A stretch of 64,000 bases of DNA from Actinomycetota bacterium (GTDB lineage: Bacteria; Actinomycetota; AC-67): contig JBBDRM010000085.1 of NCBI GenBank assembly GCA_040905475.1, positions 3,959 to 67,958 on the forward strand, read 5' to 3'. The position numbers were made by a program, and so were the translations under genes. The notes beneath the pieces are model-generated. The model made no database searches, was not told the origin of the DNA, and was given only the letters and a program-made list of their open reading frames with translations. Positions 21,152 to 57,070 of the stretch are shown here, one piece after another. The number at the start of each line of letters is the position of its first letter. Positions within the stretch are counted from its first letter, which is position 1.

Positions 21152-21224
21152 TGCCTCTCCCCCCTAGCGGTCTCGATGTAGCACCCTGGTGGGCTCGCCA
21201 TACCGCGAGCCCATCAGGGAGTTC

Positions 21225-22948: not shown

Positions 22949-22955
22949 CTGAACC

Positions 22956-25054: not shown

Positions 25055-25078
25055 CCGACCTTCGAAACAGGCAGGGGG

Positions 25079-38925: not shown

Positions 38926-39456
38926 ATGGAGCCGCAAGTGTTCGCCCTCGATGGGGAAGCCGGGGTCCGCGCCGCGTACCGGGCGCACGGCGCCGAGCTC
39001 TTCGGGTTCGCGCTGCGCGCGCTGAGGGATCCGGGGCTCGCCGAGGAGGCCGTGCAGGAGACGTTCCTGCGGGCGTGGCGAGCCGCCGATCGGTTCGACC
39101 CCGAGATCGCACCGCTGCGCGCCTGGCTGTACTCGATCATCCGCAACGTGGTGGTCGACCTCACCAGAGCGCGCGCGGCACGGCCGCAGATCGTGCAAAG
39201 CCCGACGGTGGTCGACCTCCGCGAGTCGGAGGGCGACCCGTTCGACCGGGCACTCGTCGCGTGGCAGGTCGAGGAGGCGCTGCGCAAGCTCGGCGAGGAC
39301 CACCGGCGCGTGCTGATCGAGACGTACTACCGGGCCAGGCCGTACGCGGAGGTCGCGGCGGAGCTGGGGATCCCCGAGGGGACCGTAAAGAGCCGCGTGT
39401 ACTACGCGCTGCGAGCGCTGCGGCTCACGCTGGAGGAGATGGGGTGGCAGGGATGA
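38926..39456 (+). CDS. ECF-subfamily RNA polymerase sigma-70 factor.
   Basis: Region 2 (ETFLRAWR...RAWLYSIIRNVVVD) and region 4 (YAEVAAELGIPEGTVKSR). Confidence 0.8.
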   Translation: MEPQVFALDGEAGVRAAYRAHGAELFGFALRALRDPGLAEEAVQETFLRAWRAADRFDPEIAPLRAWLYSIIRNVVVDLTRARAARPQIVQSPTVVDLRESEGDPFDRALVAWQVEEALRKLGEDHRRVLIETYYRARPYAEVAAELGIPEGTVKSRVYYALRALRLTLEEMGWQG

Positions 39457-40121
39457 CGACCGAAGGGTGCCGGCCGTGGCGGGAATCGCTCGGCGCATAC
39501 GCGCTCGGCCATCTTCCGACGGACGAACGTACCGCTCTCGAGGCGCACGTCGACGGGTGTGCGGCGTGCGACGCGGAGCTCCGGGAGCTGCGGCCGGTCG
39601 CCGAGGCGTTGCCGGCGGCTGATCCCGCCCACCTGGGCGCGCGTCCGGCTCCGCCGGCCGACCTGGGCGAGCGCGTCGCGGCGAGGATCCGCGCCGAGCA
39701 CAGCTCGCGCGTGCGGCGCCGCTGGAAGATCGCAGTTGCGGGCGTCGCGGCCGCGGCAGTGCTCGTCGCGACGACGCTGACGGTGTCGGCGGTGCTCCGT
39801 GAGGACCGCCCCGACTACGAGGTGTTCCGGTTCCCGGTGCTGCCCGCCGGCGTGGAGGCGAAGGCCTACCTGTACCCGCCCAAGGAGGGGACGCCGGGCG
39901 TCGAGGTGTGGCTCGAAGTGGACGGCCTGGAGCCGGGCGCCCGATACGCGGTCTGGGTCGAGCGGCGTTCGACCGGCGAACGCGTCGGATGCGGGACCTT
40001 CCGCGCGGTGGACGGCGCCGCGCACATCGTCCTGCCTTCTGAGGTCGACCGCGGCGACACCGGAGCCGTCGGCGTCAGCACCGCCGAAGGCGAGTTCGTG
40101 ATGATCGCTCCCGTCACGTAG
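39453..40121 (+). CDS. Anti-sigma factor (zf-HC2 type) with a TM helix and an extracytoplasmic domain.
   Basis: ATGA overlap with the sigma gene. HxxxCxxC motif (EAHVDGCAACD). Single TM (IAVAGVAAAAVLVATTLTV). Confidence 0.65.
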   Translation: MTTEGCRPWRESLGAYALGHLPTDERTALEAHVDGCAACDAELRELRPVAEALPAADPAHLGARPAPPADLGERVAARIRAEHSSRVRRRWKIAVAGVAAAAVLVATTLTVSAVLREDRPDYEVFRFPVLPAGVEAKAYLYPPKEGTPGVEVWLEVDGLEPGARYAVWVERRSTGERVGCGTFRAVDGAAHIVLPSEVDRGDTGAVGVSTAEGEFVMIAPVT

Positions 40122-41298: not shown

Positions 41299-42264
41299 GT
41301 GGATTTCGATTTCTCTCCCGAGCAGCTGGCCGTCCGCGACCTCGCGCGGGAGCTCTTCGAGAAGGAGTCGCCGCCGTCACGTCTGCGCGAGCTCTGGAGC
41401 GGTGCCGAGCGGGATCGATCGGTCTGGAAGGCGCTCGGCCAGGCGGGCCTGCTCGAGATCACGGACCCGGTCGACCTTGTGCTGGTGCTCGAGGAAGCGG
41501 GGCGCGCAGCGCTGCCCGAACCGATCGCGGAGACACTCGCGATCGCGGCGCCGGTCCTCGCCGAAGCCGGGAGCGATTGGGTCCCGCGCGTCGCGTCGGG
41601 TGAGGCGATCGTGGCCGTCCAGCTCGGCGGCGCGCCGTTCGTCGTCGACGCCGGCGACGCGGATCTGCTGCTGCTGGAGCGCGACGGCGAGCTCCACGCG
41701 CTTCCTCACGATGCGTTCACGGCGACCCCGGTCCAGTCCGACGACAAGGCTCGTCGTCTTTACGCGGTGAACGCGCACACCGGATCCGAGACGCGGATCG
41801 CGGGCGATGCCGGCGTCGCGCTCGATCGCGGAGCGGCAGCCGTGGCGGCGGTCCTCAACGGGATCTCGATGCGCATGCTCGAAATGACGCTGGAGCACGT
41901 CAAGACCCGAGAGCAGTTCGGGAAGCCGGTCGGCTCGTTCCAGGCGGTGAAGCACAAGCTGGCGAGCGCGCACGTGCGTGTGGAATCCGCGCGCGCGGCG
42001 GCCTGGTACGCCGCGTTCGCGATCGGAGCCGGGCTGCCCGACCGCTCGCTCGCGGCGTCGGTCGCCAAGGTCGTCGCCGCCGAGGCCGAGGCCATCGCGA
42101 ACGCTGAAGCGCTGCAGTGCCACGGCGGGATCGGTTTCACCTGGGAGCACGACCTGCACATGTGGATGAAGCGGGGGAAAGCGCTGGAAGCGTCCTTCGG
42201 CACCGCTGCCGAGCATCGCGCGCGCGTCGCGGCTCACGTTCTTTCGGAGCAGGCCGATGCCTGA
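41299..42264 (+). CDS. Acyl-CoA dehydrogenase family protein (beta-type partner subunit).
   Basis: GTG start 6 nt after the upstream stop. A shorter ACAD (321 aa) with the characteristic C-terminal FGKPVGSFQAVKHKLA motif. Confidence 0.7.
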   Translation: MDFDFSPEQLAVRDLARELFEKESPPSRLRELWSGAERDRSVWKALGQAGLLEITDPVDLVLVLEEAGRAALPEPIAETLAIAAPVLAEAGSDWVPRVASGEAIVAVQLGGAPFVVDAGDADLLLLERDGELHALPHDAFTATPVQSDDKARRLYAVNAHTGSETRIAGDAGVALDRGAAAVAAVLNGISMRMLEMTLEHVKTREQFGKPVGSFQAVKHKLASAHVRVESARAAAWYAAFAIGAGLPDRSLAASVAKVVAAEAEAIANAEALQCHGGIGFTWEHDLHMWMKRGKALEASFGTAAEHRARVAAHVLSEQADA

Positions 42265-43033
42265 GGCGCCTCCGTACCCGCCGGGCCGCTCGCTGCTCGA
42301 GGGCAAGACCGTGCTCGTCACCGCGGCCGCAGGAGCGGGCATCGGGTTCGCGACCGCGAAACGCTGCCTCGAGGAGGGCGCCCGCGTGGTCCTCTCCGAC
42401 AAGCACGAGCGGCGTCTGGTGGAGGCGTCCGATCGGCTGGCCGAACTCGGACGGGTCGCCTGCTCGATCCCTTGCGATGTCACATCACAGGACGATGTCG
42501 ACCGGTTGTTCCGCGGAGCCATCGAGGCGACCGGCGGGCTCGACGTCGTCGTGAACAACGCCGGGCTCGGCGGTACGAAGGACATCGCCGAGATGACCGA
42601 CGACGAATGGGCCGTCGTGATCGACATCTCTTTGAACGGAACCTTCCGGTGCACGCGAGCGGCGCTGCAGCACATGATCCCTCGGGGCGGCGGCGTGATC
42701 GTGAACCTCGGGTCGATCCTCGGCTGGCGAGCGCAGGCCGGACAGGGGCACTACGCGGCCGCGAAGGCCGGCGTCATGGCACTGACCCGAGCCGCCGCTA
42801 TGGAGGCAGCGCCGCACAACGTCCGCGTGAACTGCGTGGCGCCCTCGTTCGCGGAGACGCCGTTCCTGTCGAAAGTGGTCGCGGAGGAGACGCTGGCCGA
42901 GCTCCGCGCCCGCGAGGCGTTCGGCCGGGCGGCCGAGCCGTGGGAGGTCGCCAACGTGATCGTCTTCCTCGCGAGCGACTACTCCTCGTACATGACCGGA
43001 GAGGTCGTCTCGGTCAGCGCGCAACACCCCTAG
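42257..43033 (+). CDS. SDR-family oxidoreductase.
   Basis: Cofactor motif TAAAGAGIG. NAG motif. Y-x3-K (YAAAKAG). Confidence 0.8.
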   Translation: MPEAPPYPPGRSLLEGKTVLVTAAAGAGIGFATAKRCLEEGARVVLSDKHERRLVEASDRLAELGRVACSIPCDVTSQDDVDRLFRGAIEATGGLDVVVNNAGLGGTKDIAEMTDDEWAVVIDISLNGTFRCTRAALQHMIPRGGGVIVNLGSILGWRAQAGQGHYAAAKAGVMALTRAAAMEAAPHNVRVNCVAPSFAETPFLSKVVAEETLAELRAREAFGRAAEPWEVANVIVFLASDYSSYMTGEVVSVSAQHP

Positions 43034-43457
43034 CGGCGACCATCCCTCGGGCGGTGACCTTCCAGCCGCCGCCCGCCCTGCTCTCGATCAGATCACGATC
43101 CTCGAGCCTGTGTCGCGGGCCGTGCATCCGCATCTCTTCCGTATCTCGCGGCATCCACCAATGCGGCGTCACAGCGGCGATCTCGACGAGCATGAAGCGC
43201 TCCGCTTCCTCGAGCTCCGCGATCTCCTCGTCGGAGACCTCGCTGACGAGCGCAGCCGTGCCCGTGAACCGAGGCGCAACGTGGACGCGTTCGAAGTCGC
43301 CGGGAACGTAGTCCTCGGGGATAGGCCCCAGATATGCGACCGCGCGCCCGAACCTGCTGATCACAACGCAGCGCCCGCTGCGCTCCACCTCGTCGAGCAA
43401 CGCCGCCGCGTGGCGGCCCAACTCCCGACTCGTCACTCCTCGTGTTACGTCTCCCAT
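43014..43457 (-). CDS. Phd/YefM-like N-terminal domain fused to a putative winged-helix domain. Paralogue of 14619..15152.
   Basis: ELGRHAAALLDEVERSGRCVVISRFGRAVAYLGPIPE is a Phd/YefM-like fold. The C-terminal GGWKVTARGMVAARGV parallels GRRITKEGRAVAKAL in the paralogue. Confidence 0.45.
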   Translation of the reverse strand: MGDVTRGVTSRELGRHAAALLDEVERSGRCVVISRFGRAVAYLGPIPEDYVPGDFERVHVAPRFTGTAALVSEVSDEEIAELEEAERFMLVEIAAVTPHWWMPRDTEEMRMHGPRHRLEDRDLIESRAGGGWKVTARGMVAARGVAR

Positions 43458-43492
43458 GACTGCCTCCTGCGCGTGCCTGCCATGCCTGACGT

Positions 43493-43517
43493 GCCTGACA
43501 TGGCAGGCATGTCAGGC
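43493..43517. promoter_or_regulatory. Inverted repeat GCCTGACATG-N5-CATGTCAGGC, about 36 nt upstream of the Phd-like gene.
   Basis: Seen directly. It is flanked by direct repeats GTGCCTG[CA]CATG. Confidence 0.4.
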
Positions 43518-43581: not shown

Positions 43582-43595
43582 TAGAACGTGTTCTA
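43582..43595. promoter_or_regulatory. KstR-type (TetR-family) operator-like palindrome TAGAACGTGTTCTA.
   Basis: Exact match to the TnnAACnnGTTnnA palindrome reported for mycobacterial KstR. It lies 14 nt upstream of the ATG of the LLM oxidoreductase gene. Confidence 0.5.
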
Positions 43596-43608
43596 TAGGG
43601 TGAGGCGC

Positions 43609-44732: not shown

Positions 44733-46115
44733 CTACTTCGACGGCTTGATGTTCTGGTTGAACCGGAACAGGTTCTCCGGGTCGTACTGGGCCTTGATCT
44801 CCGCCAGCCGGTCGTAGTTCTCCTTGCCGTACGCGGCGACGATCCGGTCCTCGCCCTCGTTCCCGATGAAGTTCAGGTACACGCCCTCGGAAGCGAACGA
44901 TCTCATGTCCTTATTGAAGCCGCGCGCCCAGTTCCTCCAGAAGTCATCGTCCGCCGCGTCCGGCCAAACCGCGAACGGGTGGGTGAGCCACGGCGTCTTG
45001 CGGCGCGCCATCGGGGTCTCGTCCGGGGATACCCGAGCGACCGCGCCACCCCACGGGAAGAAAGCCAGCTGCGAAGGCGACGGCTTCATCTGACGGCCGT
45101 ACTCGACGAACTTGTCGATCGCCGCATCGGGGAACGAGTCGTGGTACGCGGCGGTCCAGTAGTTCCGGTGGCCCGGCGGATCGTCCAGCATCTTGTTGAA
45201 CTCGGAATAGGGCGCCGGCATCACGAGCTCGACGTCGCGGCTTCCGAACTCGAGGATCGAAGCCATCACTTTCCTGCCTTCTTCGGGGTCGCCGAACCAA
45301 ATGCCGAGCACGCCGGTCAAGATCGTGCCCTGAAGGTTTTCGGGGACGATCCCTTCCATGGGTGGGCCGGTCAGGAACACGCATCCGCCGCCCAGCTCGT
45401 CGGGAGCGTCCGCGGCGAAATCGCGGTAGTTGCGGATGACTTCCTCGGCCTTCTCGGGCGTGTACATCAGTAGCCCGACGAGGATCTCCGTCATGGGGTC
45501 CAGGCGGAACTCGAGCTGGGTAGCGACGCCGAAGTTGCCGCCGCCGCCGCGCAGCGCCCAGAACAGGTCGGGGTTCTCGTCGGCGCTCGCGCGAACCCGT
45601 GAGCCGTCCGCGGTGACGAGCTCGGCGGACACCAGCCGGTCACACGCCAGGCCCATCTTTCGCTCGGCCCAACCGGAGCCGCCGTTCAGGGTCAGACCGG
45701 CGACCCCCGTCGTCGAGACCCGGCCGCCGGTGGTTGCCAGGCCGTGCTCGGCGGTTGCCGCGTCCAGCTCGCCCCAGATCGCGCCGCCACCCACGCGCGC
45801 GACGCGCTTGTCGGGATCGACGACGACCTCGTTCAAGCCGCGGAGGTCGAGCAGGATCGCGTCGTCGGCGATCGACATGCCGGCCACACTGTGTCCGCCG
45901 TTGCGGACCGTGAGATCCACACCAGTGTCGCGCGCAAGGGCGATGACCGCGGCGACGTCGTCGGCGTCCGTGGCTTTGGCGATCAGGGCCGGCTTGCGAT
46001 CGATCATCGAGTTGAAGATGGCCCGGCTGTCGTCGTACGCGGCGTCGCCCGGGACGACCGTGGTGCCTTTGAACTTCTTGCCGAAGGCCTTGAGCGCTGC
46101 AGCGTCGATCGCCAT
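44733..46115 (-). CDS. FAD-linked oxidase (PCMH-type FAD-binding, BBE / 6-hydroxy-D-nicotine oxidase-like).
   Basis: FAD-binding domain motifs (RNGGHSVAG, GGGNFGV) and a C-terminal BBE-like region. Confidence 0.75.
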   Translation of the reverse strand: MAIDAAALKAFGKKFKGTTVVPGDAAYDDSRAIFNSMIDRKPALIAKATDADDVAAVIALARDTGVDLTVRNGGHSVAGMSIADDAILLDLRGLNEVVVDPDKRVARVGGGAIWGELDAATAEHGLATTGGRVSTTGVAGLTLNGGSGWAERKMGLACDRLVSAELVTADGSRVRASADENPDLFWALRGGGGNFGVATQLEFRLDPMTEILVGLLMYTPEKAEEVIRNYRDFAADAPDELGGGCVFLTGPPMEGIVPENLQGTILTGVLGIWFGDPEEGRKVMASILEFGSRDVELVMPAPYSEFNKMLDDPPGHRNYWTAAYHDSFPDAAIDKFVEYGRQMKPSPSQLAFFPWGGAVARVSPDETPMARRKTPWLTHPFAVWPDAADDDFWRNWARGFNKDMRSFASEGVYLNFIGNEGEDRIVAAYGKENYDRLAEIKAQYDPENLFRFNQNIKPSK

Positions 46116-46128
46116 CGAGATCCCCTCC

Positions 46129-47643
46129 TCAGAGCATCGTCCGGAGCGCCTTGCGGTCGATCTTTCCGACCGGCGTCAGCGGGACGGCCGGCACGATGTT
46201 CACCACCCGCGGGTACTTGTAGCCACCGATCTTGCCCTTGGTGAAGGCGATCAGCTCCTCCGGCGTCACCTCCGCCCCCGGGTTCAGCGAAACGAACGCG
46301 ACGACCTCCTCGCCGAGCTTGGGGTCCTTGCGCCCGACGACCCCGGCGAGCGCGACCGCCGGGTGCTCGAGGAGGCAATCCTCGACGTCGCGGGGGAAGA
46401 CGTTGAAGCCGCCCCGGATGATCAGGTCCTTCTTGCGGTCGACGATCTTCAGATAGCCGTCCTCGTCGAACGTGCCGATGTCTCCGGTGTAGAGCCAGCC
46501 GTCCTTCAGGGTCGAGGCCGTCGCCTCGGGCGCCTTCCAGTAGCCCTGCATGACCCCGGGCGAGCGCGTCGTCACCTCACCGGGCTCGCCCGGCGCCGAC
46601 GGGGACCCGTCGTCGTTGCGCAGCACGACCTCGTAGCCGGGGATCACCTTGCCGACGGTCCCGAGCTTGGGGGCGTCGGGCGGATTCACCGAGATCACCG
46701 CGCCCGACTCCGTGCAGCCGTATCCCTCGCAGATCTTGACACCCGGGACGCGCCGCAGGAACTCCGCCGCGATCTCGGGAGCGAGCGGGGCCGCGCCGGA
46801 GGTTAGGTATCGCAGGGACGACAGGTCGTACTCCTCGAGCGGCTGGCCGAGCAGGATCTGGATCATCGACGGCACGACCGTCCCGCGCTGCACCTTCATG
46901 TCCTGGCTGAGACGCAGCCACTCGACCGGATCGAACCACTTCATCAAGATGCCCTCGCCGGGCTCCACGCTGTGCAGCGAGACGACGCTCACGATGAGCC
47001 CGAACGAGTGCGACAGCGGCAGCGGCACGAGCACGCGCGCGACGCCGGGGACGAACGAGGCCTCGTTGGCGGACTTCCCGCAGTACCAGAGGTTCTCGTG
47101 CGAGAGCATCACACCTTTGGCGCGCCCGGTCGTGCCTCCCGTGTACATCAGCGCCGCGAGATCGGAGTCGTCGCGGAGCACGATCTCGCCGGGCGCGGCG
47201 TCCTCGAGGGATCCCAATGAGATCACGCCGTCCTGCTCGGGCCCGAGCGAGATGATCCACTTCAGCGTCGAGACGCCCTCGGCGGCTTTGCGCACGTTGT
47301 CGAGGAACTCGGGGGTCGTGACGATCGCGGTGGCTTCCGAGTCCTCGAGGATCCGCCGGACCTCGTCGGGCGGGAGAAGGAAGATCAGCGGGGTAATCGC
47401 GGCGCCGGCGCTCCATAGCCCGCCGTAGACGATCCCGACCTCGGGACAGTTCGCCATGAGGACGGCCACCCGATCGCCGGGCGCGATCCCGAGCTCCCTG
47501 AAGCCGGTGCTGAGCTTTCGGGAGCGCTCGAAGAACTCGCCGGAGCGGTACCACTTGCCCTCGAAGAACAGCGACTCGCGATCGCCGTGCCGCTCGAACG
47601 ACTGCTCGCCGAGACGCGCCAGATTGTGTTCGCCCTTGGCCAT
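46129..47643 (-). CDS. fadD: Long-chain fatty-acid-CoA ligase (AMP-binding).
   Basis: Start MAKGEH with an AAGGGGAGGG RBS. AMP-binding motifs YTGGTTGRAKGV and GYGCTE. Confidence 0.8.
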   Translation of the reverse strand: MAKGEHNLARLGEQSFERHGDRESLFFEGKWYRSGEFFERSRKLSTGFRELGIAPGDRVAVLMANCPEVGIVYGGLWSAGAAITPLIFLLPPDEVRRILEDSEATAIVTTPEFLDNVRKAAEGVSTLKWIISLGPEQDGVISLGSLEDAAPGEIVLRDDSDLAALMYTGGTTGRAKGVMLSHENLWYCGKSANEASFVPGVARVLVPLPLSHSFGLIVSVVSLHSVEPGEGILMKWFDPVEWLRLSQDMKVQRGTVVPSMIQILLGQPLEEYDLSSLRYLTSGAAPLAPEIAAEFLRRVPGVKICEGYGCTESGAVISVNPPDAPKLGTVGKVIPGYEVVLRNDDGSPSAPGEPGEVTTRSPGVMQGYWKAPEATASTLKDGWLYTGDIGTFDEDGYLKIVDRKKDLIIRGGFNVFPRDVEDCLLEHPAVALAGVVGRKDPKLGEEVVAFVSLNPGAEVTPEELIAFTKGKIGGYKYPRVVNIVPAVPLTPVGKIDRKALRTML

Positions 47644-47680
47644 GTGCGACCGCCCTCCCCTTGATCGAGGTAGGGACAGG

Positions 47681-48625
47681 CTACAGAGCGATGCGCTCCC
47701 GGTGCCATGCGGCGGTGCCCCAGGCATGCGCGAGCGCCGTCGCCTTGTTGAGCCACAGATGCAGATCGTGCTCGTGGGTGTAGCCGATCGCGCCGTGCAC
47801 CTGGAGCGACGCGCGACACGCGTTCATCGCCGCGTCGGACGCATAAGACTTAGCCATCGAGACGTACCGCGAGCGCTGCTCGTCGCCGGTCGCGACCGAC
47901 CAGGCAGCCCGATACACGAGCGGCCGGGCGAACTCGAGCCCGAGCAGCGCGTCGGCGAGCAGGTGCTTGACCGCCTGGAACGAGCCGATCGGCTTGCCGA
48001 ACTGGTGACGCTCCTTCGCGTACGTCGCACCCAACTCGATGACGCGGGCGGCGATCCCGCACAGGACGGCCGCAGCCGCGAGGGCTCCCCGGTCGAACGC
48101 CGCGTCGTCGATCCCGGCGCCGTCGAATGCGAACAGGCGCCGGGTGGCGTCGATCGACGGGAGCCGCTCGAGGTGCAGATCGCTCGGCAGGACCGGGCCG
48201 TTCGGGGTCAGGATCAGGTCCGCGACATGCGCGTCGGCCAGCGTCACGCCGCTCATCGCGACGGTCAGGATCGCGTCGCCCGCCGCCACCCGCGGCAGCC
48301 ACTCCCGGGCGAGATCGCCCCCGATCGCGCGCAGCATCGGAACGCCGACGGCGGCCGTCTCGAGCAGCGGTTCGGGCAGCGCGGCACGCCCCGCCTCTTC
48401 CAGCAGGAGCACGAGGTCGATCTCCTCTCCGCCGAGGCCGCCGAATTCCTCGGGCACGGTGAGCCCGACAACGCCGAGCCCGGCGAGGCCCTTCCACAGC
48501 TTCGGCGAGCGGCCGGTCGGATCCGTCGTCATCGCGCGCACGTGCTCGGGCGGACACTCCTTCGCCAGGAAGTCGCGAACGGCGCGCTGGAACGCGCGCT
48601 GCTCGTCGGTGAACGTGAAGCGCAT
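47681..48625 (-). CDS. Acyl-CoA dehydrogenase family protein (beta-type partner).
   Basis: Start MRFTFTDEQRAF, 6 nt after the upstream stop. 314 aa. FGKPIGSFQAVKHLLA motif. Confidence 0.7.
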   Translation of the reverse strand: MRFTFTDEQRAFQRAVRDFLAKECPPEHVRAMTTDPTGRSPKLWKGLAGLGVVGLTVPEEFGGLGGEEIDLVLLLEEAGRAALPEPLLETAAVGVPMLRAIGGDLAREWLPRVAAGDAILTVAMSGVTLADAHVADLILTPNGPVLPSDLHLERLPSIDATRRLFAFDGAGIDDAAFDRGALAAAAVLCGIAARVIELGATYAKERHQFGKPIGSFQAVKHLLADALLGLEFARPLVYRAAWSVATGDEQRSRYVSMAKSYASDAAMNACRASLQVHGAIGYTHEHDLHLWLNKATALAHAWGTAAWHRERIAL

Positions 48626-48630
48626 CGCCC

Positions 48631-49764
48631 TCAGCCTCGGGGGAGGCCGAGCACGCGCTCGGCGACGATGTTGCGCTGGATCTCGTTCGTGCCGGCGTAG
48701 ATCGGCCCGGCGAGCGAGAACAGGAACCCGTCGGTCCACGGCCCGGCCAACTCGGCTTCCTCGCCGAGCACGGACAACGCGGTTCGATGCATGCGCTGAT
48801 CCATCTCGGACCAGAAGATCTTGTTCAGGCTCGTCTCGGCGCCGACCTCGCCGCCGGCCAGGAAATGCGAGACGGTCCAGTAGGTGTGCAGCCGGTACGC
48901 CTCGGTGTCGGTGACCGCGCGGGAAACCTCGTCGCGTAGGGACGCCGGGAGCGCAGCCGCGCGGGACCTATACAGCTTCACGAGCCGGGCGGCGGTCGCC
49001 ATGAAACGGCCCGGCGAGCGGAGCACCACGCCGCGCTCGAACCCGGTCGTCGACATCGCGATCTTCCAGCCCTCGCCGCGCCCGCCGAGCGTGTTGGCAA
49101 CCGGAACCTGCACGTCGTCGAGGAAGACTTCCGCGAAGCCCGCCTCGCCGTCGAGCTGCGCGATCGGACGGACCGTGACGCCGGGCGCGTCGAGCGGCAC
49201 GAGGAGGTAGGACAGCCCGCGATGCCGTTCCGAGCCGGGCTCGGTCCGGAAGATGCCGAACATCCAGTCGGCGAACGCTCCGCGCGAGCACCACGTCTTC
49301 TGCCCGCTCAGAACCCACTCGTCCCCGTCGAGCGTCGCGCGCGAGGTCAGCGACGCCAGGTCGCTCCCCGAGTTCGGCTCCGACCAGCCTTGGCACCAGA
49401 CCTCGTCGGACCGCGCGATCTTCGGCAGGTACCGCGCCTTCTGCTCGGGCGTCCCAAACTCGAGCAGCACCGGCCCGAGCAAGAAGATCCCGTTCTGATT
49501 CACGCGGCCCGGCGCGCCGGAGCCCCAGTACTCCTCCTCGAAGATCAGCCATTCGATGAGCCCGGCGCCGCGACCGCCGTACTCCTCGGGCCAGTTGACG
49601 ACCGCCCAACCGGCGTCGGCGAGGCGTCGCTCCCACTCGCGGTGCGCTTCGAAGCCTTCGGCGGTGTCGAACGACGGCAGTGGCTCGCGCGGGACGTTCG
49701 CAGAAAGCCAGGCGCGCGCCTCCGAGCGGAAGGCGTCCTGGGCCGGGGTGAAGGAAAGGTCCAC
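48631..49764 (-). CDS. Acyl-CoA dehydrogenase (alpha-type).
   Basis: GTG start. N-terminus MDLSFTPAQDAFRSEARAWLSANVP is paralogous to 40133..41293. Confidence 0.8.
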   Translation of the reverse strand: MDLSFTPAQDAFRSEARAWLSANVPREPLPSFDTAEGFEAHREWERRLADAGWAVVNWPEEYGGRGAGLIEWLIFEEEYWGSGAPGRVNQNGIFLLGPVLLEFGTPEQKARYLPKIARSDEVWCQGWSEPNSGSDLASLTSRATLDGDEWVLSGQKTWCSRGAFADWMFGIFRTEPGSERHRGLSYLLVPLDAPGVTVRPIAQLDGEAGFAEVFLDDVQVPVANTLGGRGEGWKIAMSTTGFERGVVLRSPGRFMATAARLVKLYRSRAAALPASLRDEVSRAVTDTEAYRLHTYWTVSHFLAGGEVGAETSLNKIFWSEMDQRMHRTALSVLGEEAELAGPWTDGFLFSLAGPIYAGTNEIQRNIVAERVLGLPRG

Positions 49765-49778: not shown

Positions 49779-49799
49779 TATCTGACGGGTCGTCAGATA
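49779..49799. promoter_or_regulatory. 21-bp perfect palindrome TATCTGACG-GGT-CGTCAGATA (candidate repressor operator).
   Basis: Seen directly, in the divergent promoter region between the ACAD gene (minus, start 49764) and the DUF1326 gene. Its core TCTGACGGGTCGTCAGA is repeated at 52317..52333. Confidence 0.5.
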
Positions 49800-49879
49800 C
49801 CTTCGGGCGTCCGCTCGACCGGCGCCTCTACTCGGTCGTATGGTTGGAAGGGCACGGGCGACCGAGGGAGGCGCAGATC

Positions 49880-50461
49880 ATGGCCTACACCATCAAGGGC
49901 GAGTACGTCGTCACCTGCAACTGCAATCTGATCTGTCCCTGCGGTGTCGACGGAACACCTACGTCGAAGGACGGCCAATGCCACGGCGGGCAGGTGCTCC
50001 ATGTCGCCGAGGGGACCAAGGATGGCGTCGACCTCGCCGGCGTCGACATCGGCTGGGTGTACCACATCCCCGGCAACGTAACGGGGGGAAATTGGACCAT
50101 GGTGCTCGTTCTCGACCCGAGCGTCTCCGACGAGCAAGTGAAAGCGGTCGAAGACATCATCCAGGGCAAGGACGGCGGACCGTTCGCAGACTTCGCGCCG
50201 CTGATCGGCACCTTCAAACCGACAGAACGCGCCCCAGTCTCGTTCACCGGCGGTAAAGAAGCGAAGGGCTCGATCGGTTCGAGCTCATTGGGCTTCACGC
50301 CCGTCCTCGGTGCGGACGGGAACCCGACGACCATCAAGAACGCGATGTTCGGATTCGCGCCCGAGTACGAGATCGGCAAGGGATCCGGCTCGGTCACGGC
50401 CGGGGGCATCTCGTACGACGCGATCTACGGCGAGCACGCGGCCTTCGAGTTCGCCAGCTAG
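49880..50461 (+). CDS. DUF1326-family protein.
   Basis: Start MAYTIKGEYVVTCNCNLICPC with a GAGGGAGG RBS. Cys cluster typical of DUF1326. Confidence 0.55.
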   Translation: MAYTIKGEYVVTCNCNLICPCGVDGTPTSKDGQCHGGQVLHVAEGTKDGVDLAGVDIGWVYHIPGNVTGGNWTMVLVLDPSVSDEQVKAVEDIIQGKDGGPFADFAPLIGTFKPTERAPVSFTGGKEAKGSIGSSSLGFTPVLGADGNPTTIKNAMFGFAPEYEIGKGSGSVTAGGISYDAIYGEHAAFEFAS

Positions 50462-50521: not shown

Positions 50522-51586
50522 ATGACGTATCGCGTCATCCAATGGAGCACGGGGAACGTCGGCCGTTACGCGCTTCGCGGGATCATCAACCATCCAGAGC
50601 TCGATCTCGTCGGGCTCTGGGTGCACTCCGAGAAGAAGGCCGGCATGGATGCCGGCGAGCTGGCCGGCGTTGGGCCCGTCGGCGTCATCGCGACCAACGA
50701 CGCCGAGGCGCTCCTCGCGCTCGACGCCGACGTCGTCGTCTACAACGCGACCGGCGACCTCCGTCCGCACGAGGCGGTCGAGGACACCGTCCGCATCCTC
50801 GATTCCGGCAAGAACGTCGTCGGAACGGCTTTGGTCCCGATGGTCTACCCGCCGAGCGCGCCCGAGCAGATGCGCGACCCGATCCAGGAGGCGTGCCTGC
50901 GGAACAACGTGTCGTGCTTCACGTCGGGCATCGACCCCGGCGTCGCGAACGACCTGCTGCCGCTCGTGATCACGGGGCTCGCCGAGCGGATCGACTCGGT
51001 GCGCGTGCAGGAGATCCTCAACTACGCGACCTACGACCAGCCCGAGGTGCTCTTCCACACTATGGGCTTCGCGAAGCCGCTCGATCACACGCCCATCCTT
51101 CTCCTGCCTGGCGTGCTGTCGCTCGCGTGGGGCTGCATCGTCAACGTCATCGCCGCCGGACTCGGCGTCGAGCTCGACGAGATCCGCGAGGTCGTCGTCG
51201 AGAAGGTCCCCGCGCCCGAGACGTTCGAGGTCCCCTCGGGAACCGTCGAGAAGGGCACGATGGCGGGATTGCGGTTCGAGATCCAAGGCATCGTCGGCGG
51301 CGAGGTGCGCATCGTCGTCGAGCACATCACCCGCCTGCGCGAGGACATCGCGCCGCACTGGCCGCCGCCGCCGGGCAAAGGCGGCTACAAGGTGCGCCTC
51401 GAGGGGTCGCCGACGATCACGCTGACCCTCGAGATGGAAGGCGACGGCGGCGACGAGAACTCGGGCGGATTGATCGTGACGGCCACGCGGCTGCTGAACT
51501 CGATCCCGGCCGTCGTGAACGCGCCGCCGGGCGTCCTGAGCGCCCTCGATCTGCCGCTGATCACGGGCAAAGGCTTGATGCGCTGA
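50522..51586 (+). CDS. NAD(P)-binding oxidoreductase, DapB-like (dihydrodipicolinate-reductase-like N-terminal fold).
   Basis: VIQWSTGNVGRYALRGII Rossmann motif. Confidence 0.5.
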   Translation: MTYRVIQWSTGNVGRYALRGIINHPELDLVGLWVHSEKKAGMDAGELAGVGPVGVIATNDAEALLALDADVVVYNATGDLRPHEAVEDTVRILDSGKNVVGTALVPMVYPPSAPEQMRDPIQEACLRNNVSCFTSGIDPGVANDLLPLVITGLAERIDSVRVQEILNYATYDQPEVLFHTMGFAKPLDHTPILLLPGVLSLAWGCIVNVIAAGLGVELDEIREVVVEKVPAPETFEVPSGTVEKGTMAGLRFEIQGIVGGEVRIVVEHITRLREDIAPHWPPPPGKGGYKVRLEGSPTITLTLEMEGDGGDENSGGLIVTATRLLNSIPAVVNAPPGVLSALDLPLITGKGLMR

Positions 51587-51603: not shown

Positions 51604-52005
51604 TTAGTGCGGATGATGGATCTTGAGCGGCGAATGCCGCGCGATCATGTCGAAGTCGCGGTCGTTGTGGAGGATCTCCGCTCCGGCGCGGATCGCTGGG
51701 ACGGCGACGAGACAGTCGGTCATCCCCCGCAACGTCTCCCCTGCCCGGCGGCACGACTGGAAGATGTATGCCGCGGCTTCGAAGTCGGCGAGGCCCGCAA
51801 GCGTGAGCATGGGGAGGTTGACGAGCCGCTCGCGGAGCACGCCCCGAGGAGGTCCCGGTTCCGCGCCTGCGAGAAGCTCCATCACGACGATCTCGGTGAC
51901 CGCCACCTGCACGTCGCGCGCAAACAAGCGCTCGAGTGCACGCCCAGCCGGGTGATCCGTGCCGCGAAGATGTTCGATCCACGCGGAGCTGTCGGCGACG
52001 ATCAC
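51604..52005 (-). CDS. vapC: PIN-domain toxin VapC.
   Basis: GTG start overlaps the vapB stop. PIN acidic residues (VADSSAW...E...D...NDRDF). Confidence 0.7.
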   Translation of the reverse strand: MIVADSSAWIEHLRGTDHPAGRALERLFARDVQVAVTEIVVMELLAGAEPGPPRGVLRERLVNLPMLTLAGLADFEAAAYIFQSCRRAGETLRGMTDCLVAVPAIRAGAEILHNDRDFDMIARHSPLKIHHPH

Positions 52006-52223
52006 TTCTTAGGGTGTGCTCGGCCGCGGATCTCGTCCAGGTCCCCCGGCCAGCCCATCCCTTGCAAGTCGAGCATGTCGCGCGGTCGGTACCGGCGTTT
52101 CCCGACGAGCGATTCCAGCGCGAACTGAACGGCCGCCCGCTTGGTCGGCAGGTCGTAGAGCTTCATGACCTTGGCCACCAGCTCATCGTCGATCACGATG
52201 TTCGTTCGCCCCATGATCTGCAT
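52002..52223 (-). CDS. vapB: VapB-family antitoxin.
   Basis: Start MQIMGRTNIVIDDELVAKVMKLYDL with a GAGGTG RBS. The track start 52280 lacks an RBS. Confidence 0.6.
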   Translation of the reverse strand: MQIMGRTNIVIDDELVAKVMKLYDLPTKRAAVQFALESLVGKRRYRPRDMLDLQGMGWPGDLDEIRGRAHPKK

Positions 52224-52316
52224 GATACACCTCGATACACATCGCCCTTCCTGGTAGGCGAGCCTATGGCCCTGGATCATGGAGTCCAGAGCAGCAACCA
52301 GCGCGATCGGTTGAAA

Positions 52317-52333
52317 TCTGACGGGTCGTCAGA
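52317..52333. promoter_or_regulatory. Second copy of the palindrome TCTGACGGGTCGTCAGA.
   Basis: Seen directly. It lies 13 nt upstream of the GTG start of the DUF35 / SCP2-thiolase / thiolase operon and is divergent from vapBC. Confidence 0.5.
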
Positions 52334-52345: not shown

Positions 52346-52783
52346 GTGCCCGAAGCCCCTTCCATCACCCCGGCTCCTGCCGTCGACGGCTGGTTCACCA
52401 CCGGCGCCGATCCGCACCTGATCGGCGTCCGCTGTCCGGCCTGCGGGACGTACGCGTTCCCGCCCGAGATCTTCTCCTGCCCGAACCCGCGGTGCGGGTC
52501 CTCGGACCTCGAGCGCGTGGCGCTGTCGCGTCGAGGCCGGGTCTGGTCGTTCTCGGTCAACCACTACGCCGCTCCCCCGCCGGCGCTATCCCCCGAGCCG
52601 TTCGAGCCGTACGCGGTCGCCGCGGTCGAGCTGCCCGAGGAGCGGATAGTTGTGCTCGGTCGCGTGGCCGACGGCGTCGCCTTGGATGAGCTCCAGATCG
52701 GCTCCGAGATGGAGATCGTCGTCGAGCCGATCATCCCGGGCGCCGACGAGCTCGTCTGGAAATGGAAGCCGGTGGGAGCTTGA
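52346..52783 (+). CDS. DUF35 OB-fold / Zn-ribbon protein (thiolase/aldolase partner subunit).
   Basis: Zn-ribbon CPACG...CPNPRCGS followed by an OB-fold. Immediately followed by an SCP2-type thiolase-like gene. Confidence 0.7.
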   Translation: MPEAPSITPAPAVDGWFTTGADPHLIGVRCPACGTYAFPPEIFSCPNPRCGSSDLERVALSRRGRVWSFSVNHYAAPPPALSPEPFEPYAVAAVELPEERIVVLGRVADGVALDELQIGSEMEIVVEPIIPGADELVWKWKPVGA

Positions 52784-53973
52784 GCGCGGGTCGCGTCGCG
52801 GTCGCCGGCGTTGGGATGCACCCCTGGGGCAAGTGGGGGAACAACTTCGTCTCGTACGGCGTCGTCGCGGCGCGCGCGGCGCTGGCAGACGCGGGCATCG
52901 AGTGGACCGACGTCCAGTTCATCGCGGGCGGCGAGACGGTGCGCAACGGCTACCCCGGCTACGTCGCCGGGGCGACCTTCGCGCAGGCGCTCGGCTGGTC
53001 GGGCGCGCAGGTCGCGACCTGCTACGCCGCGTGCGCATCGGGCGCGCAGGCGATCGACGTCGCGCGAGCGCGGATCCTTGCGGGGCTGTGCGACGTCGCA
53101 TTGGTGGTCGGATCGGACACCACGCCCCGAGGCTTCCTCGCGCCGTCGGGCGGCGAGCGGCGGACGGATCTCGACTGGCTGCGGTTCCGTCTCGTCGGGG
53201 CCACCAACCCGACGTACTTCGCGCTGTACGCGCGCCGGCGCATGGAGCTATACGGCGAGACCGAGGCCGACTGGGCGCAAGTGAAGGTCAAGAACGCGCG
53301 GCATGGGTTGAACAACCCGAACGCCCGCTACCGCAAGGAGGTCTCTGCGGACGAGGTGCTCGCGAGCGCGATGGTCTCCGACCCGCTGCGGCTGCTTCAG
53401 ATCTGCACGACCTCCGACGGCGCCGCGGCCGTGGTCCTCACATCGCTCGAGTACGCGAAGCGGCACGGGGTCCCAGACCCGGTCAAGGTCGCGGCCGTGT
53501 CGACGGTCACGCCGACCTACCCGCAGACGGCCATCGAGATGCCGTATCTATCGACCGACTCGGCGGCCGCCGTCGCGCCTCCCGAACGCCTGTTCCGCGA
53601 CGCGATCGCCCACGCGGCGCTGGAAGAAGCGGGTATCGGGCCCGAGGATCTCTCGCTCGCGGAAGTTTATGACCTATCCACGGCGTTGGAACTTGATTGG
53701 TACGAGAACATCGGCCTGTGCAAGGAGGGCGAGGCTGCGCGGCTGCTGCACGACGGCGACACGACGCTCGGCGGGCGCGTGCCGGTGAACCCGAGCGGCG
53801 GTCTGGCATGCTTCGGCGAGGCGGTTCCCGCACAGGCGATCGCGCAGGTGTGCGAGGTGACCTGGCAGCTTCGCGGGCAGGCCGAGGGCAGACAGGTGGC
53901 GAATGCAAACGTGGGACTGACCATCAACCAGGGGCTGTTCGGACACGGCTCCTCCGTGATCTGTGTGAGGTGA
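52762..53973 (+). CDS. Thiolase-like lipid-transfer protein (SCP-x / Ltp-type).
   Basis: RVAVAGVGMHPWGK N-terminus and an active-site Cys region (CYAACASG). Overlaps the DUF35 gene by 22 nt. Confidence 0.7.
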   Translation: MEAGGSLSAGRVAVAGVGMHPWGKWGNNFVSYGVVAARAALADAGIEWTDVQFIAGGETVRNGYPGYVAGATFAQALGWSGAQVATCYAACASGAQAIDVARARILAGLCDVALVVGSDTTPRGFLAPSGGERRTDLDWLRFRLVGATNPTYFALYARRRMELYGETEADWAQVKVKNARHGLNNPNARYRKEVSADEVLASAMVSDPLRLLQICTTSDGAAAVVLTSLEYAKRHGVPDPVKVAAVSTVTPTYPQTAIEMPYLSTDSAAAVAPPERLFRDAIAHAALEEAGIGPEDLSLAEVYDLSTALELDWYENIGLCKEGEAARLLHDGDTTLGGRVPVNPSGGLACFGEAVPAQAIAQVCEVTWQLRGQAEGRQVANANVGLTINQGLFGHGSSVICVR

Positions 53974-53976: not shown

Positions 53977-55125
53977 ATGGCTGAGGCATACATCATCGAC
54001 GCGGCGCGTACGGCGGTCGGCAAGCGCGGCGGCGCGCTCTCGAAGGTGCACCCCGCCGACCTGGGCGCACACATCCTGAAAGCGATCGTCGAGCGCAGCG
54101 GCGTGGACCCGAACACGGTCGACGACGTCATCTTCGGCTGCATCGACCAGGTCGGCCCGCAGGCCGGCGACATCGCGCGCACCTCTTGGCTCGCGGCCGG
54201 GTTCCCCGAGGACGTGCCCGGCGTCACGATCGACCGCCAATGCGGCTCCTCGCAGCAGGCGGTTCACTTCGCGGCACAGGCCGTGATGAGCGGGACGATG
54301 GACGTCGTGATCGCCGGCGGTGTCCAGAACATGTCGCTGATCCCGATCGGCTCGGCCGGACGCGTCGGCAAGGACATGGAGCTCCCACACACCTTCCACG
54401 GGTCCGAGGGATGGGTGAAGCGCTACAACACCGAACCCGTCAGCCAGTTCTACGCCGCCGAGAAGATCGCGGAGAAGTGGAACATCAGCCGCCGGGACAT
54501 GGAAGAGTTCGCGCTCGAGTCGCACACCCGGGCTCGCCGCGCGCAGGCCGAAGGACGGTTCGACCGCGAGATCGTGCCGTTCGGCGAGTTCACGGTGGAC
54601 GAGGGCCCGCGCGACACCTCGCTCGAGAAGATGGCTTCGCTGGATCTACTGCCCGGCGCGAAGACGCTGACCGCGGCGGTCTCGTCGCCGACCAACGACG
54701 CGGCGTCGGCGGTCCTCATCGCGAACGAGGCGGCGGTCAAGCGGAACGGCTGGACGCCGCGCGCGCGCGTCCACTTCCTCGGCGTCCGCGGCGCCGATCC
54801 GATCTACATGCTCACCGCGCCGATCAACGCGACGTTCCACGCGCTCGAGAAGACCGGCATGTCGCTCGACGACATCGACCTGGTCGAGATCAACGAGGCG
54901 TTCGCGCCGGTCGTGCTCGCGTGGCAGAAGGAGACGGGGGCCGACCTGGGTCGCGTCAACGTGAACGGCGGCGCGATCGCGCTGGGTCACCCGATCGGCG
55001 CGACCGGGACGCGACTGATGACGACGCTGCTGCACGAGCTCGAGCGGTCGGGCGGCCGCTACGGGCTCCAGACGATGTGCGAGGGCGGCGGCCAGGCGAA
55101 CGCCACGATCATCGAACGCCTCTAG
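53977..55125 (+). CDS. fadA: Acetyl-CoA C-acyltransferase (thiolase II, FadA-like).
   Basis: IIDAARTAVGKRGG. Catalytic Cys in QCGSSQQA. NVNGGAIALGHPIGATG. CEGGG. Confidence 0.85.
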   Translation: MAEAYIIDAARTAVGKRGGALSKVHPADLGAHILKAIVERSGVDPNTVDDVIFGCIDQVGPQAGDIARTSWLAAGFPEDVPGVTIDRQCGSSQQAVHFAAQAVMSGTMDVVIAGGVQNMSLIPIGSAGRVGKDMELPHTFHGSEGWVKRYNTEPVSQFYAAEKIAEKWNISRRDMEEFALESHTRARRAQAEGRFDREIVPFGEFTVDEGPRDTSLEKMASLDLLPGAKTLTAAVSSPTNDAASAVLIANEAAVKRNGWTPRARVHFLGVRGADPIYMLTAPINATFHALEKTGMSLDDIDLVEINEAFAPVVLAWQKETGADLGRVNVNGGAIALGHPIGATGTRLMTTLLHELERSGGRYGLQTMCEGGGQANATIIERL

Positions 55126-55129: not shown

Positions 55130-55582
55130 ATGCCGGCCGTTCCCGCGCGCGTCTCGTTCGTCACGATCGGCGCGCACGACCTGGCCGCGCTGCGCGCCTT
55201 CTACGCGGGGCTGGGCTGGCGTGAGGCGATCTCGACCGATGGCTTCGCGGCGTTCGAGACCGGTGGAGCGATCCTCGGGCTCTTCCCGATCGAGGAGCTG
55301 ATCACCGACGCGAAGCTCGAGGTCTCGACGGAGCGCCCGGCATTTCGCGGCGTGACGCTGGCGATCAACGTGGAGTCGGCCGAGCGGGTCGACGAGACGC
55401 TCGACAACGCCCGGGACGCCGGCGCGATGATCCTGAAGGAGGGGACGACCGCCGAATGGGGCGGCCGTTCGGGTTACTTCGCCGACCCCGAGGGCAACAT
55501 CTGGGAGGTCGCGTGGATGCCGGGCTCGTGGTTCGACCCGAACGGCGGGCTCGTCCTGCCGGAACCTGAGCCCTCGGGGTGA
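55130..55582 (+). CDS. VOC-family protein (glyoxalase / bleomycin-resistance fold).
   Basis: VSFVTIGAHDLAALRAFYAGLGW...DPEGNIWEV. Confidence 0.7.
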   Translation: MPAVPARVSFVTIGAHDLAALRAFYAGLGWREAISTDGFAAFETGGAILGLFPIEELITDAKLEVSTERPAFRGVTLAINVESAERVDETLDNARDAGAMILKEGTTAEWGGRSGYFADPEGNIWEVAWMPGSWFDPNGGLVLPEPEPSG

Positions 55583-55648: not shown

Positions 55649-57070
55649 TCAGGCGCGGTCGGCGGCCTTCAGCAGCTCATCGAGGGATCCATGCAGGCCG
55701 TCGGTGATCCGGTGAACATCGGGGAGCAGCGACGTGCACGAGATCGCTGCGAAGTTCATCTGGTCGATGTAGCTCCACACGGTGACGTTCAAGCCTATGC
55801 CCTCGAGGATCGGACCGACCGAGTAGAGCGCCGCGAGCTTCGCCCCGGCGATGTACAGAGGGGCGCGCGGCCCGGGCACGTTCGAGACGACCAGGTTGAT
55901 CGGCGGCCGATGCTTCGCCGCCAGCCCGCGGCGCGAGTAGGTACGCATGAACCAGTTGAACGGCCGAGGCGGCGCATACTCGAGCCAGCTCGCCATCGTG
56001 TCGGCACCCAGGATGTTCTGCACGATCTTCGCTTCCTTCGTGATCTCGTGGATCGCGCGCAAGCGTTCGACGGGGTCGGCGATGTCGGTACACAGCGAGG
56101 TGAACATGTTCGAGACCTTGTTTCCACCCAGCCGCGCCACGTCGTCGGGCTTGTCGGTGGCGACCGGAACGCCGGCGATCAAGGGCCGGTCGAGCCTCTC
56201 GCCGCGCTCCGCGAGGTAGCGCCGCACCGAGCTGCCGACGACGTCGAGGACGACGTCGTTGAGCGTGACGTCGAACGCGGTCTTGACCCGCTTGAAGTCG
56301 TCGAGAGCGAGCGAGGTCGTCGCGAAGGCGCGGCTCGCAGAGAGTGGCCCGTTGAACGAGGTTCTCGGCGCGTCGCGGATCGGGCGGGGCGGCCGGATCG
56401 TGGTCTGCTCGCGGTGACGCGCGAGGGCCTTCGCGCCGGCGCGAGTGCGCTTATACAGGGCAGGAACCAGTCGCAACGCCGCTCGCTTGTCGCTCCGGCC
56501 GGAGCGCGCAAGCGCTCGCGCGTCGGGGATCGGCTCGCCGCTCCACGGCTCGGCTGGAGGCTCCGGGTCGGCCGGCTCAGGGTCGACGCTGAGCACGTTC
56601 GCGAGAAGGGCGGCCGCGGCAACGCCGTCGGCGGCCGCGTGGTGGATCTTCGCGACGAACGCGACGTGGCCGTCCTCCAGTCCCTCGAGCGCCCACAGCT
56701 CCCAGAGCGGCTTGTCGCGGTCGAGTTGCGAGCTCGCGATCTTCCCGATGATCGCATCCATCTCCCGCGCGCCGCCGGGGGCCGGAACCGTCGTGCGCTT
56801 GAGATGCTTGTCGAGCGAGAAGTTGGGATCCTCGATCCACACCGGGTGGTGGATGCCCCGGGGAAGATCCACGATCCGCCGGCGGAACGGTGGAAGCAGG
56901 TGAAGACGCTTGGCGAGCTCCTCGCGGAAGCGCTCGAACGAGTAACCGCCGGGGACGTTGACCGGATCGATGACGCCGATCTTGAGCGTGTGCATGTGGA
57001 GCGTGGGCGTCTCCATGTAGAGGAAGCCCGCGTCCAGACCCGTCATGCGCTCCACGAGCGTCAGTGTCAC
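55649..57070 (-). CDS. Wax ester synthase / diacylglycerol acyltransferase (WS/DGAT).
   Basis: Catalytic HHxxxDG motif (HHAAADG). About 473 aa. Confidence 0.8.
   Translation of the reverse strand: MTLTLVERMTGLDAGFLYMETPTLHMHTLKIGVIDPVNVPGGYSFERFREELAKRLHLLPPFRRRIVDLPRGIHHPVWIEDPNFSLDKHLKRTTVPAPGGAREMDAIIGKIASSQLDRDKPLWELWALEGLEDGHVAFVAKIHHAAADGVAAAALLANVLSVDPEPADPEPPAEPWSGEPIPDARALARSGRSDKRAALRLVPALYKRTRAGAKALARHREQTTIRPPRPIRDAPRTSFNGPLSASRAFATTSLALDDFKRVKTAFDVTLNDVVLDVVGSSVRRYLAERGERLDRPLIAGVPVATDKPDDVARLGGNKVSNMFTSLCTDIADPVERLRAIHEITKEAKIVQNILGADTMASWLEYAPPRPFNWFMRTYSRRGLAAKHRPPINLVVSNVPGPRAPLYIAGAKLAALYSVGPILEGIGLNVTVWSYIDQMNFAAISCTSLLPDVHRITDGLHGSLDELLKAADRA

Follow-up and report, generated by a model that had tools for sequence, protein, structure and literature searches.

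The closest described relative of the element treated here is the operator of KstR (Rv3574 / MSMEG_6042), a TetR-family repressor of mycobacteria, Rhodococcus and Nocardia. Kendall 2007 gave the motif as TAGAAC(N2)GTTCTA or TnnAACnnGTTnnA, bound by a dimer on 29-bp probes; at the kstR promoter it overlaps the -10 element in part, fadE34 and kstR are laid out divergently in mycobacteria, and the regulon was first termed "lipid degradation" (PMC1995591). Among the individual sites, ATTAGAACGTGTTCTAATTT at the Rv0940c promoter was positive for M. tuberculosis KstR in electrophoretic mobility shift assays (EMSA), as was the site beside Rv3520c, while ACTAGAACGTGTTCTAATAG is the entry for the intergenic region of M. 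smegmatis MSMEG_6041/6042 (kstR) (PMC1995591). For Nocardioides simplex, too, KstR and KstR2 regulons have been predicted; they lie in recognizable steroid clusters and are phytosterol-responsive (PMC7807495), so KstR-type regulation was already known beyond the mycolic-acid group. Here we describe a KstR-type box, TAGAACGTGTTCTA, in front of a luciferase-like (LLM) oxidoreductase gene within 64 kb of DNA from an uncultured member of the Actinomycetota (GenBank assembly GCA_040905475.1, contig JBBDRM010000085.1, positions 3,959 to 67,958; hereafter the window). We consider it quite likely that this box is the operator of a KstR-family TetR encoded outside the window and that its occupation blocks the LLM promoter.

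Results

A KstR-type box conserved at LLM promoters

The two half-sites of the box, TAGAAC and GTTCTA, form perfect inverted repeats around a central GT that is not self-complementary (Table 1). The box fits TnnAACnnGTTnnA exactly and is the sole match in the window, where 0.08 are expected; 8 of 100 shuffled windows contained at least one. With the TAGAACNNGTTCTA consensus and up to one mismatch, the single match in the window is the same site, and there were none in 100 shuffles. An earlier note on this DNA, made from its letters alone, had reported an exact match to the KstR consensus at this position, which we confirm and find to be unique in the window; the gap to the start codon, given there as 14 nt, measures 13 nt (box end 43595, ATG 43609). 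The window reads AACTAGAACGTGTTCTATAG, and the 14-mer is identical both to the Rv0940c site positive in EMSA and to the core of the M. smegmatis kstR instance. Judged by its sequence and conservation, TAGAACGTGTTCTA is a genuine conserved operator of the KstR-family type.

Further boxes in the window amount to weak sites with 2-4 mismatches, mostly intragenic, and none stands before another operon. A box-like site with two mismatches, TGGTACGGGTTCTA, is found at 22424 in a 1-kb noncoding gap; this gap is part of a region (~10400-26000) where G+C falls to 0.61-0.65 and the genes include TadE-like, Calx-beta, signal-peptidase-like and camelysin-like ones. We rejected the idea that TAGAACGTGTTCTA acts as a hairpin or terminator, as its folding energy was no better than that of shuffles (z = -0.19) and no terminator was called there.

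We scanned 80 LLM-anchored loci (1.44 Mb; numbered with the prefix L) for near-consensus boxes and found 15 sites, eight of them upstream of the LLM orthologue: seven within 80 nt of the start and one, in Frankia, farther away (Table 1). The LLM orthologues of L081 and L163 are likewise preceded by a box. When seven promoters were aligned, the island GGGTTGAAAAACTAGAACGTGTTCTATA proved common to the window, L001, L002 and L009, with diverging flanks; the block conserved in these four is TTGAA[AG]-N3-TAGAACGTGTTCTA, and the length of the leader that follows varies, a ~45-60-nt leader present in some promoters being missing in the window and L005. At L003:470-507, upstream of a boxless orthologue, the half-sites GAGAAC and GTTCTC stand 14 nt apart, not 2, and may represent a disrupted operator.

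KstR-family TetR genes in related contigs

No TetR gene is encoded in the window, as the earlier note had also concluded. The best tblastn match of a KstR-like protein in the window had an E of 0.46, a helix-turn-helix (HTH) hidden Markov model built from the N-terminal 75 aa of ~80 KstR-like proteins gave a best E of 1.8 against the six-frame translation, and TetR_N was absent from ~50 window open reading frames (ORFs) scanned with Pfam.

Relatives of the locus carry such genes together with boxes. On L081 (GCA_054638955.1, a 180-kb contig whose LLM is 80% identical), a gene with TetR_N and TetR_C_20 (PF17925) lies at 46-627, 10 kb from the LLM orthologue, and the contig has four boxes: at 19 before the TetR gene, at 1699 before an operon of a short-chain dehydrogenase/reductase (SDR), an aldehyde dehydrogenase and an LLM, at 5617 before an SDR and an acyl-CoA dehydrogenase (ACAD) pair, and at 9930 before the LLM orthologue. 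On L163 (GCA_975419715.1; LLM 76%), an ACAD gene and the TetR gene diverge on either side of TGCAACAGGTTCTA; the LLM orthologue follows 9 kb off behind TAGAACGTGTTTCA. The genes of the closest TetR homologues (L083-L092 and L163-L165) are transcribed away from an ACAD gene, and the box lies in the gap, as for fadE34 and kstR in mycobacteria; this layout is seen in L083, L086, L089, L090, L092 and L163-L165. The ACAD in this arrangement has ~370-396 aa; fadE34 encodes a larger fused protein.

Against solved structures, the L081 TetR matches M. tuberculosis KstR first (E 1.5e-25, residues 10-192) and a Rhodococcus-type TetR second (2.6e-22), after which the matches fall to 5e-8. In the HTH region ~72% of the residues are identical to KstR and the stretch GTLYRYFPSK is conserved, and the C-terminal domain of the relatives' TetR is weakly conserved against KstR. 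A TetR-anchored set of 80 metagenome loci (534 kb) contains 69 strict boxes versus 0.8 expected (~86-fold), located, where homologues could be mapped, at the starts of ACAD-TetR operons and of FadD, aldehyde dehydrogenase, thiolase and LLM genes; many of these loci contain the exact 14-mer found in the window. The conservation of the box, its co-occurrence with TetR genes in relatives and the identity of the 14-mer to the M. tuberculosis EMSA site all support the proposal of the earlier note that a KstR-type operator is served by a regulator encoded outside the window.

Proposed layout of the LLM promoter

The box lies between two putative promoter hexamers, TTGAAA and TAGGGT, whose 17-nt spacing is filled by AAC and the 14-bp box; 7 nt and then the ATG follow. 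Since the site occupies the putative -35/-10 spacer, binding of a KstR-family TetR dimer to the 14 bp would block RNA polymerase at the LLM promoter. By analogy with KstR, the repressor would leave the DNA on binding an acyl-CoA thioester from an early step in the breakdown of a bulky lipid.

Related promoters vary around the same theme. L005 repeats the layout of TAGGGT, 7 nt and ATG, and L020 has TAGGCT, 6 nt and GTG; in L002 and L009, TATCCT and GATAAT take the -10 position, and the 17-nt spacing is kept; L004 and L081 differ in that TTGACC, as a -35 element, shares bases with the 3' end of the box, and TACGCT follows 18 nt further on. In each of the layouts compared, a bound dimer would occlude the polymerase, in keeping with the partial overlap of motif and -10 element at the kstR promoter (PMC1995591). 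Because the ATG comes 7 nt past TAGGGT, the LLM mRNA is probably leaderless and starts at or beside ATG 43609. Compared with L001:1578-1621, the window (43596-43608) is without a ~45-nt leader containing a Shine-Dalgarno sequence, which places the -10-like hexamer 7 nt from the ATG; apparently, a leadered gene has turned leaderless.

The LLM gene and its surroundings

The window has 64-71% G+C, so genes were called by third-position G+C (GC3) and named with Pfam and NCBIfam. The LLM start is conserved in all orthologues (MEFGIF...). The protein falls short of the cut-off of every NCBIfam LLM subfamily; the best model is TIGR03619 with 112 versus 167 bits, and the Rv3520c type scores 52 versus 335 bits. 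The LLM class of Rv3520c was confirmed via the NCBIfam model name, and that of Rv0940c was not confirmed in the literature. Orthologues at 54-96% identity come from uncultured Actinomycetota/Acidimicrobiia, Streptomyces and Frankia; the closest, up to 96%, are all from uncultured "Actinomycetota bacterium" assemblies, and identity is 53-65% for Acidimicrobiia, Catenulispora, Frankia and Streptomyces. By these affinities, the source lineage is an uncultured one within the Actinomycetota and not Mycobacterium.

As the gene 3' of the LLM gene converges on it, the box can control the LLM gene alone, and the predicted reach of the KstR-type box is this monocistronic gene only. Upstream, a divergent ORF of 147 aa has no homologue in any related locus and is probably lineage-specific and outside the KstR unit; as a regulator acting on the box it was ruled out, since relatives that keep the box have no homologue of it. 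A paralogue, also weakly Phd/YefM-antitoxin-like and 52% identical over 59 aa, is found at 14979-15152 within ORF 14619-15194 (-). Directly upstream of the 147-aa ORF, at 43474-43517, nested inverted repeats (TGCCTGCCATG/CATGGCAGGCA and GCCTGACATG/CATGTCAGGC) hold CTGAC[GA] half-sites with a spacing unlike that of the second operator described below, and may be the ORF's own operator. The spacer between SDR and LLM in L001, whose LLM is 96% identical, differs in sequence from that of the window.

A second operator in the neighboring operons

The earlier note implied a link between the KstR-type box and a cluster of some 15 kb. We found that only the LLM gene follows the box, and that two neighboring operons carry a different palindrome, BOX2: the DUF35 operon and, on the minus strand at 44733-49764, ACAD alpha2, ACAD beta2, FadD and the FAD/BBE oxidase. 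BOX2 occurs in the window as two identical 17-mers, TCTGACGGGTCGTCAGA, of the form TCTGACG-N3-CGTCAGA (strict core CTGACG-N3-CGTCAG). The LLM-anchored loci contain 128 strict cores versus 0.2 expected. Both positions are kept in L002 and L009, and in L005 and L010 BOX2 stands at the ACAD-alpha2 position. It is also seen upstream of the LLM orthologues among L021-L080. In Streptomyces, BOX2 precedes the LLM orthologue, often in two copies, and is also found before FadD, SCP2-thiolase, amidohydrolase, second LLM and SDR genes. Its half-sites are nearly invariant, with occasional single-base changes, and the center varies freely, a pattern more in line with a protein site than with an RNA stem, for which paired changes in both arms would be expected.

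The search for a BOX2 regulator gave no clear candidate. When genes near BOX2 in L002, L005, L009 and Streptomyces L024 were scanned with Pfam, nothing turned up beyond a SARP/NB-ARC/TPR protein and a distant MarR-like ORF, and clustering of all ORFs downstream of BOX2 produced enzymes and no regulators. We found no described motif matching BOX2 in the literature, including the Mce3R, mycobacterial TetR and Nocardioides motifs. The KstR-like TetRs were ruled out as its binders, their HTH being near-invariant whichever box type the locus contains.

The two box types meet in some relatives. A KstR box and a BOX2 are adjacent in one intergenic region at L145:1862-1893, L146:3688-3719, L148:2846-2899 and L148:7083-7114, which suggests dual control of some promoters. 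At L144:5179-10534 and L140:901-5812, an operon of an SDR (68% identical to that of the window), an enoyl-CoA hydratase (ECH), two CoA-transferase subunits and an NMO-type reductase has a KstR-family TetR gene as its last member; in L144, three BOX2 sites and no KstR box stand before the operon.

Neighboring genes and enzymes

The genes listed by the earlier note are all present: two ACAD pairs, FadD, an SDR, a FAD_binding_4/BBE oxidase and the series of DUF35, SCP2-thiolase and thiolase. The first ACAD pair and the SDR start 11 nt past the anti-sigma gene, without a box, and may be cotranscribed with the extracytoplasmic function (ECF) sigma and anti-sigma genes. The L081 counterparts of these ACAD and SDR genes stand behind a KstR-type box instead. 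The order ACAD pair, SDR, box and LLM is common to the window, L005, L081 and L163. A PIN toxin pair has been inserted after the DapB-like gene and ahead of the DUF35 operon, where relatives have other genes or none; in L005, DUF35 directly follows the DapB-like gene.

The claim that the ACAD pairs are of the alpha/beta type is borne out by structure matches and by a loop missing from the beta subunits. Alpha subunits have three Pfam domains, and the beta subunits are ~60 aa shorter, have no Pfam match for the middle domain and share an 18-aa deletion of the SEPxxGSD loop. The best structures are Tcur3483 and 4X28_A (~1e-54) for alpha1 and 4X28_A (2e-49) for alpha2, followed by a drop to ~1e-34, and Tcur3481 (2e-24) and 4X28_D for beta1; the best NCBIfam model of the beta subunits is IpdE2, below cut-off. 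Both alpha subunits retain a Glu aligned with residue 247 of 4X28_A, which we take to be the catalytic base.

An Ltp2-type side-chain aldolase, also proposed in the earlier note, is not what the SCP2-thiolase gene appears to encode. The protein keeps Cys85 (ACASG) and Cys344 (ACFG), and its structure matches are to 6HSJ, an SCP2 type-1 thiolase (8e-53), and BbsB (6e-48), with Ltp2 (6OK1) ranking twelfth (4e-26). Ltp2 in the 6OK1 work is reportedly without the catalytic cysteines. Given the retained cysteines and the closer match to SCP2 thiolases and BbsB, the aldolase reading falls, and the protein looks like a thiolase.

Table 1. Coordinates of features in the window, and boxes upstream of LLM orthologues in related loci
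Feature	Position	Strand	Remarks
KstR-type operator TAGAACGTGTTCTA	43582-43595	.	6-bp inverted half-sites, 2-bp center
-35-like hexamer TTGAAA	43573-43578	+	putative; part of conserved island GGGTTGAAAAACTAGAACGTGTTCTATA
-10-like hexamer TAGGGT (TAnnnT form)	43596-43601	+	putative, read by eye; abuts operator
LLM (luciferase-like) oxidoreductase, 373 aa	43609-44730	+	PF00296, E 9e-51; monocistronic
Divergent 147-aa ORF, weak Phd/YefM-like N-terminus	43014-43457	-	PF02604, E 6e-4, below cut-off; GC3 0.80-0.83
BOX2 TCTGACGGGTCGTCAGA, 17-mer	49781-49797	.	between ACAD alpha2 (-) and DUF1326 (+)
BOX2, identical 17-mer	52317-52333	.	12 nt before DUF35 GTG (52346); between TTGAAA and AAGAAT
ECF sigma	38926-39456	+
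Anti-sigma (zf-HC2)	39453-40121	+
ACAD alpha1, 386 aa	40133-41293	+	Pfam
ACAD beta1, 321 aa	41299-42264	+	Pfam
SDR	42257-43033	+	Pfam
FAD/BBE oxidase	44733-46115	-	Pfam
FadD	46129-47727	-	Pfam
ACAD beta2, 314 aa	47681-48625	-	Pfam
ACAD alpha2, 377 aa	48631-49764	-	Pfam
DUF1326	49844-50461	+
DapB-like	50522-51586	+
PIN toxin and small upstream partner	51604-52280	-
DUF35	52346-52783	+	Pfam
SCP2-thiolase	52780-53973	+	Pfam; NCBIfam PRK06059 "lipid-transfer protein" 707 bits (cut-off 424)
Thiolase	53977-55125	+	Pfam; PRK07801 663 bits (cut-off 591)
Glyoxalase	55130-55582	+
WS/DGAT	55649-57070	-
Box, L001	-58 from start		LLM 96%
Box, L002	-76 from start		LLM 92%
Box, L004	-72 from start		LLM 78%
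Box, L005	-28 from start		LLM 77%
Box, L009	-64 from start		LLM 74%
Box, L020	-35 from start		LLM 56%
Box, L054	-36 from start		LLM 54%
Box, L074 (Frankia)	-249 from start		LLM 54%

Discussion

Several observations weigh against a KstR-family TetR acting at the LLM promoter of the window. Genes for such a TetR are known from the contigs of relatives only, not from the source genome. The best NCBIfam model for the L081 protein is KstR (NF033703) at 144 bits, below the cut-off of 280, and its overall identity to M. tuberculosis KstR is 34%; on these numbers, the relatives' TetR is a member of the KstR family, not a proven KstR equivalent, and its ligand may differ. A sigma-70 consensus scan called no promoter at the box; the scan needs at least 4/6 matches to TATAAT in the second hexamer and TAGGGT has 3/6. 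LLM orthologues at 69-78% identity are boxless in L003, L006-L008 and L010, and the Streptomyces orthologues carry BOX2 in place of the KstR box.

The most substantial alternative concerns the substrate alone and leaves the operator mechanism as it is. A KstR-family paralogue might sense ordinary or branched fatty acyl-CoAs and govern general lipid catabolism or storage, the steroid label having been inherited from mycobacteria; we give this somewhat less than an even chance. The genes next to boxes in KstR-anchored contigs (FadD, single ACADs, aldehyde dehydrogenase, SDR, thiolase and LLM) and the presence of WS/DGAT genes and a branched-chain-type ABC importer in the same loci speak for it, as do the score of the relatives' TetR below the KstR equivalog cut-off and the original description of the regulon as "lipid degradation" (PMC1995591). 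Families of the KshA, KstD and HsaC types were absent from every gene table and Pfam scan. Within the window, the steroid substrate suggested by the earlier note is not borne out: there are no ring-opening families among the scanned ORFs, which include no KshA-type Rieske oxygenase, KstD, HsaA-D or ipdAB/echA20. On the other side, the ACAD pairs are of the alpha/beta type and the solved structures nearest to them are those of the steroid enzymes ChsE4-ChsE5 and Tcur3481/3483. In L081, moreover, genes for an ECH, two CoA-transferase subunits and an NMO-type reductase come after the orthologous cluster, in an order that we take to resemble echA20-ipdAB-ipdC of steroid ring C/D breakdown. With similar sets in L081 and L140/L144, the lineage may hold part of the steroid pathway.

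We regard it as very unlikely that the palindrome is a chance occurrence, a relic or a plain core promoter with no repressor acting in this organism. The single site in the window, the lack of a visible regulator and the boxless orthologous promoters would agree with such a view, but no site is expected by chance, the box is kept while the leader changes from ~13 to ~60 nt, and unrelated genes also have the palindrome in front of them wherever a KstR-like gene lies nearby, with the ~86-fold enrichment given above. That a regulator of another family recognizes GAAC-N2-GTTC here is extremely improbable, as the regulator gene adjoining the boxes in each related contig examined is a KstR-type TetR, and the actinobacterial LexA box, GAAC-N4-GTTC, has a 4-nt and not a 2-nt spacer.

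A KstR-family operator at the LLM promoter is compatible with a wider and more doubtful proposal, namely that two repressor regulons are interleaved at the locus in a mosaic, one marked by the KstR box and the other by BOX2, between which the LLM family has moved by lineage. Under this tentative proposal, BOX2 is conserved from uncultured Actinomycetota to Streptomyces, with no described regulator found; if true, it marks a large unnamed regulon for the catabolism of lipids or alicyclic acids, which in these lineages may be the functional counterpart of KstR2, given the position of BOX2 before the L144 operon. BOX2 is the less expected result and poses a more open question than the KstR box. 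It also illustrates how gene-cluster context can mislead, with one gene belonging to the KstR-type regulon and its neighbors answering to BOX2. The KstR-type box itself extends a mycobacterial repressor-operator pair, with the operator sequence unchanged, to abundant uncultured Actinomycetota of the soil and offers a way to predict, with sequence as the only input, which genes belong to their lipid or sterol-like catabolic regulons.

Comparison with known systems

Among the enzymes, the Ltp2-ChsH2(DUF35) aldolase (6OK1) shares with the window a DUF35 gene followed by a gene of the SCP2-thiolase fold and differs from it in that the window protein keeps both catalytic cysteines; the DUF35-thiolase pair of the window resembles BbsAB and the archaeal thiolase complex. 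The alpha2beta2 ACADs (ChsE4-ChsE5, that is FadE26-FadE27, PDB 4X28; Tcur3481-Tcur3483, PDB 6WY8/6WY9; IpdE2; PimC/PimD) likewise combine adjacent genes for a full-length alpha and a short beta subunit, whereas the window proteins score 141-244 bits, far below the equivalog cut-offs of 450-624.

Among the regulatory systems, that of Nocardioides simplex is similar in having KstR-type regulation beyond the mycolic-acid actinobacteria and dissimilar in its steroid cluster and phytosterol response. In comparison with KstR of mycobacteria, Rhodococcus and Nocardia, the host of the window is an uncultured, nonmycobacterial member of the Actinomycetota, its LLM falls outside the Rv3520c subfamily, the regulator of its relatives is 34% identical and below the equivalog cut-off, its neighboring operons are under another operator, and there are no ring-degrading genes in view at the window. 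What the two have in common is a box directly upstream of the -10 element, putative in the window, and abutting it, an autoregulated TetR divergent from an ACAD gene, as seen in relatives of the window, and targets of a lipid-catabolic type that include LLM-class oxidoreductases.

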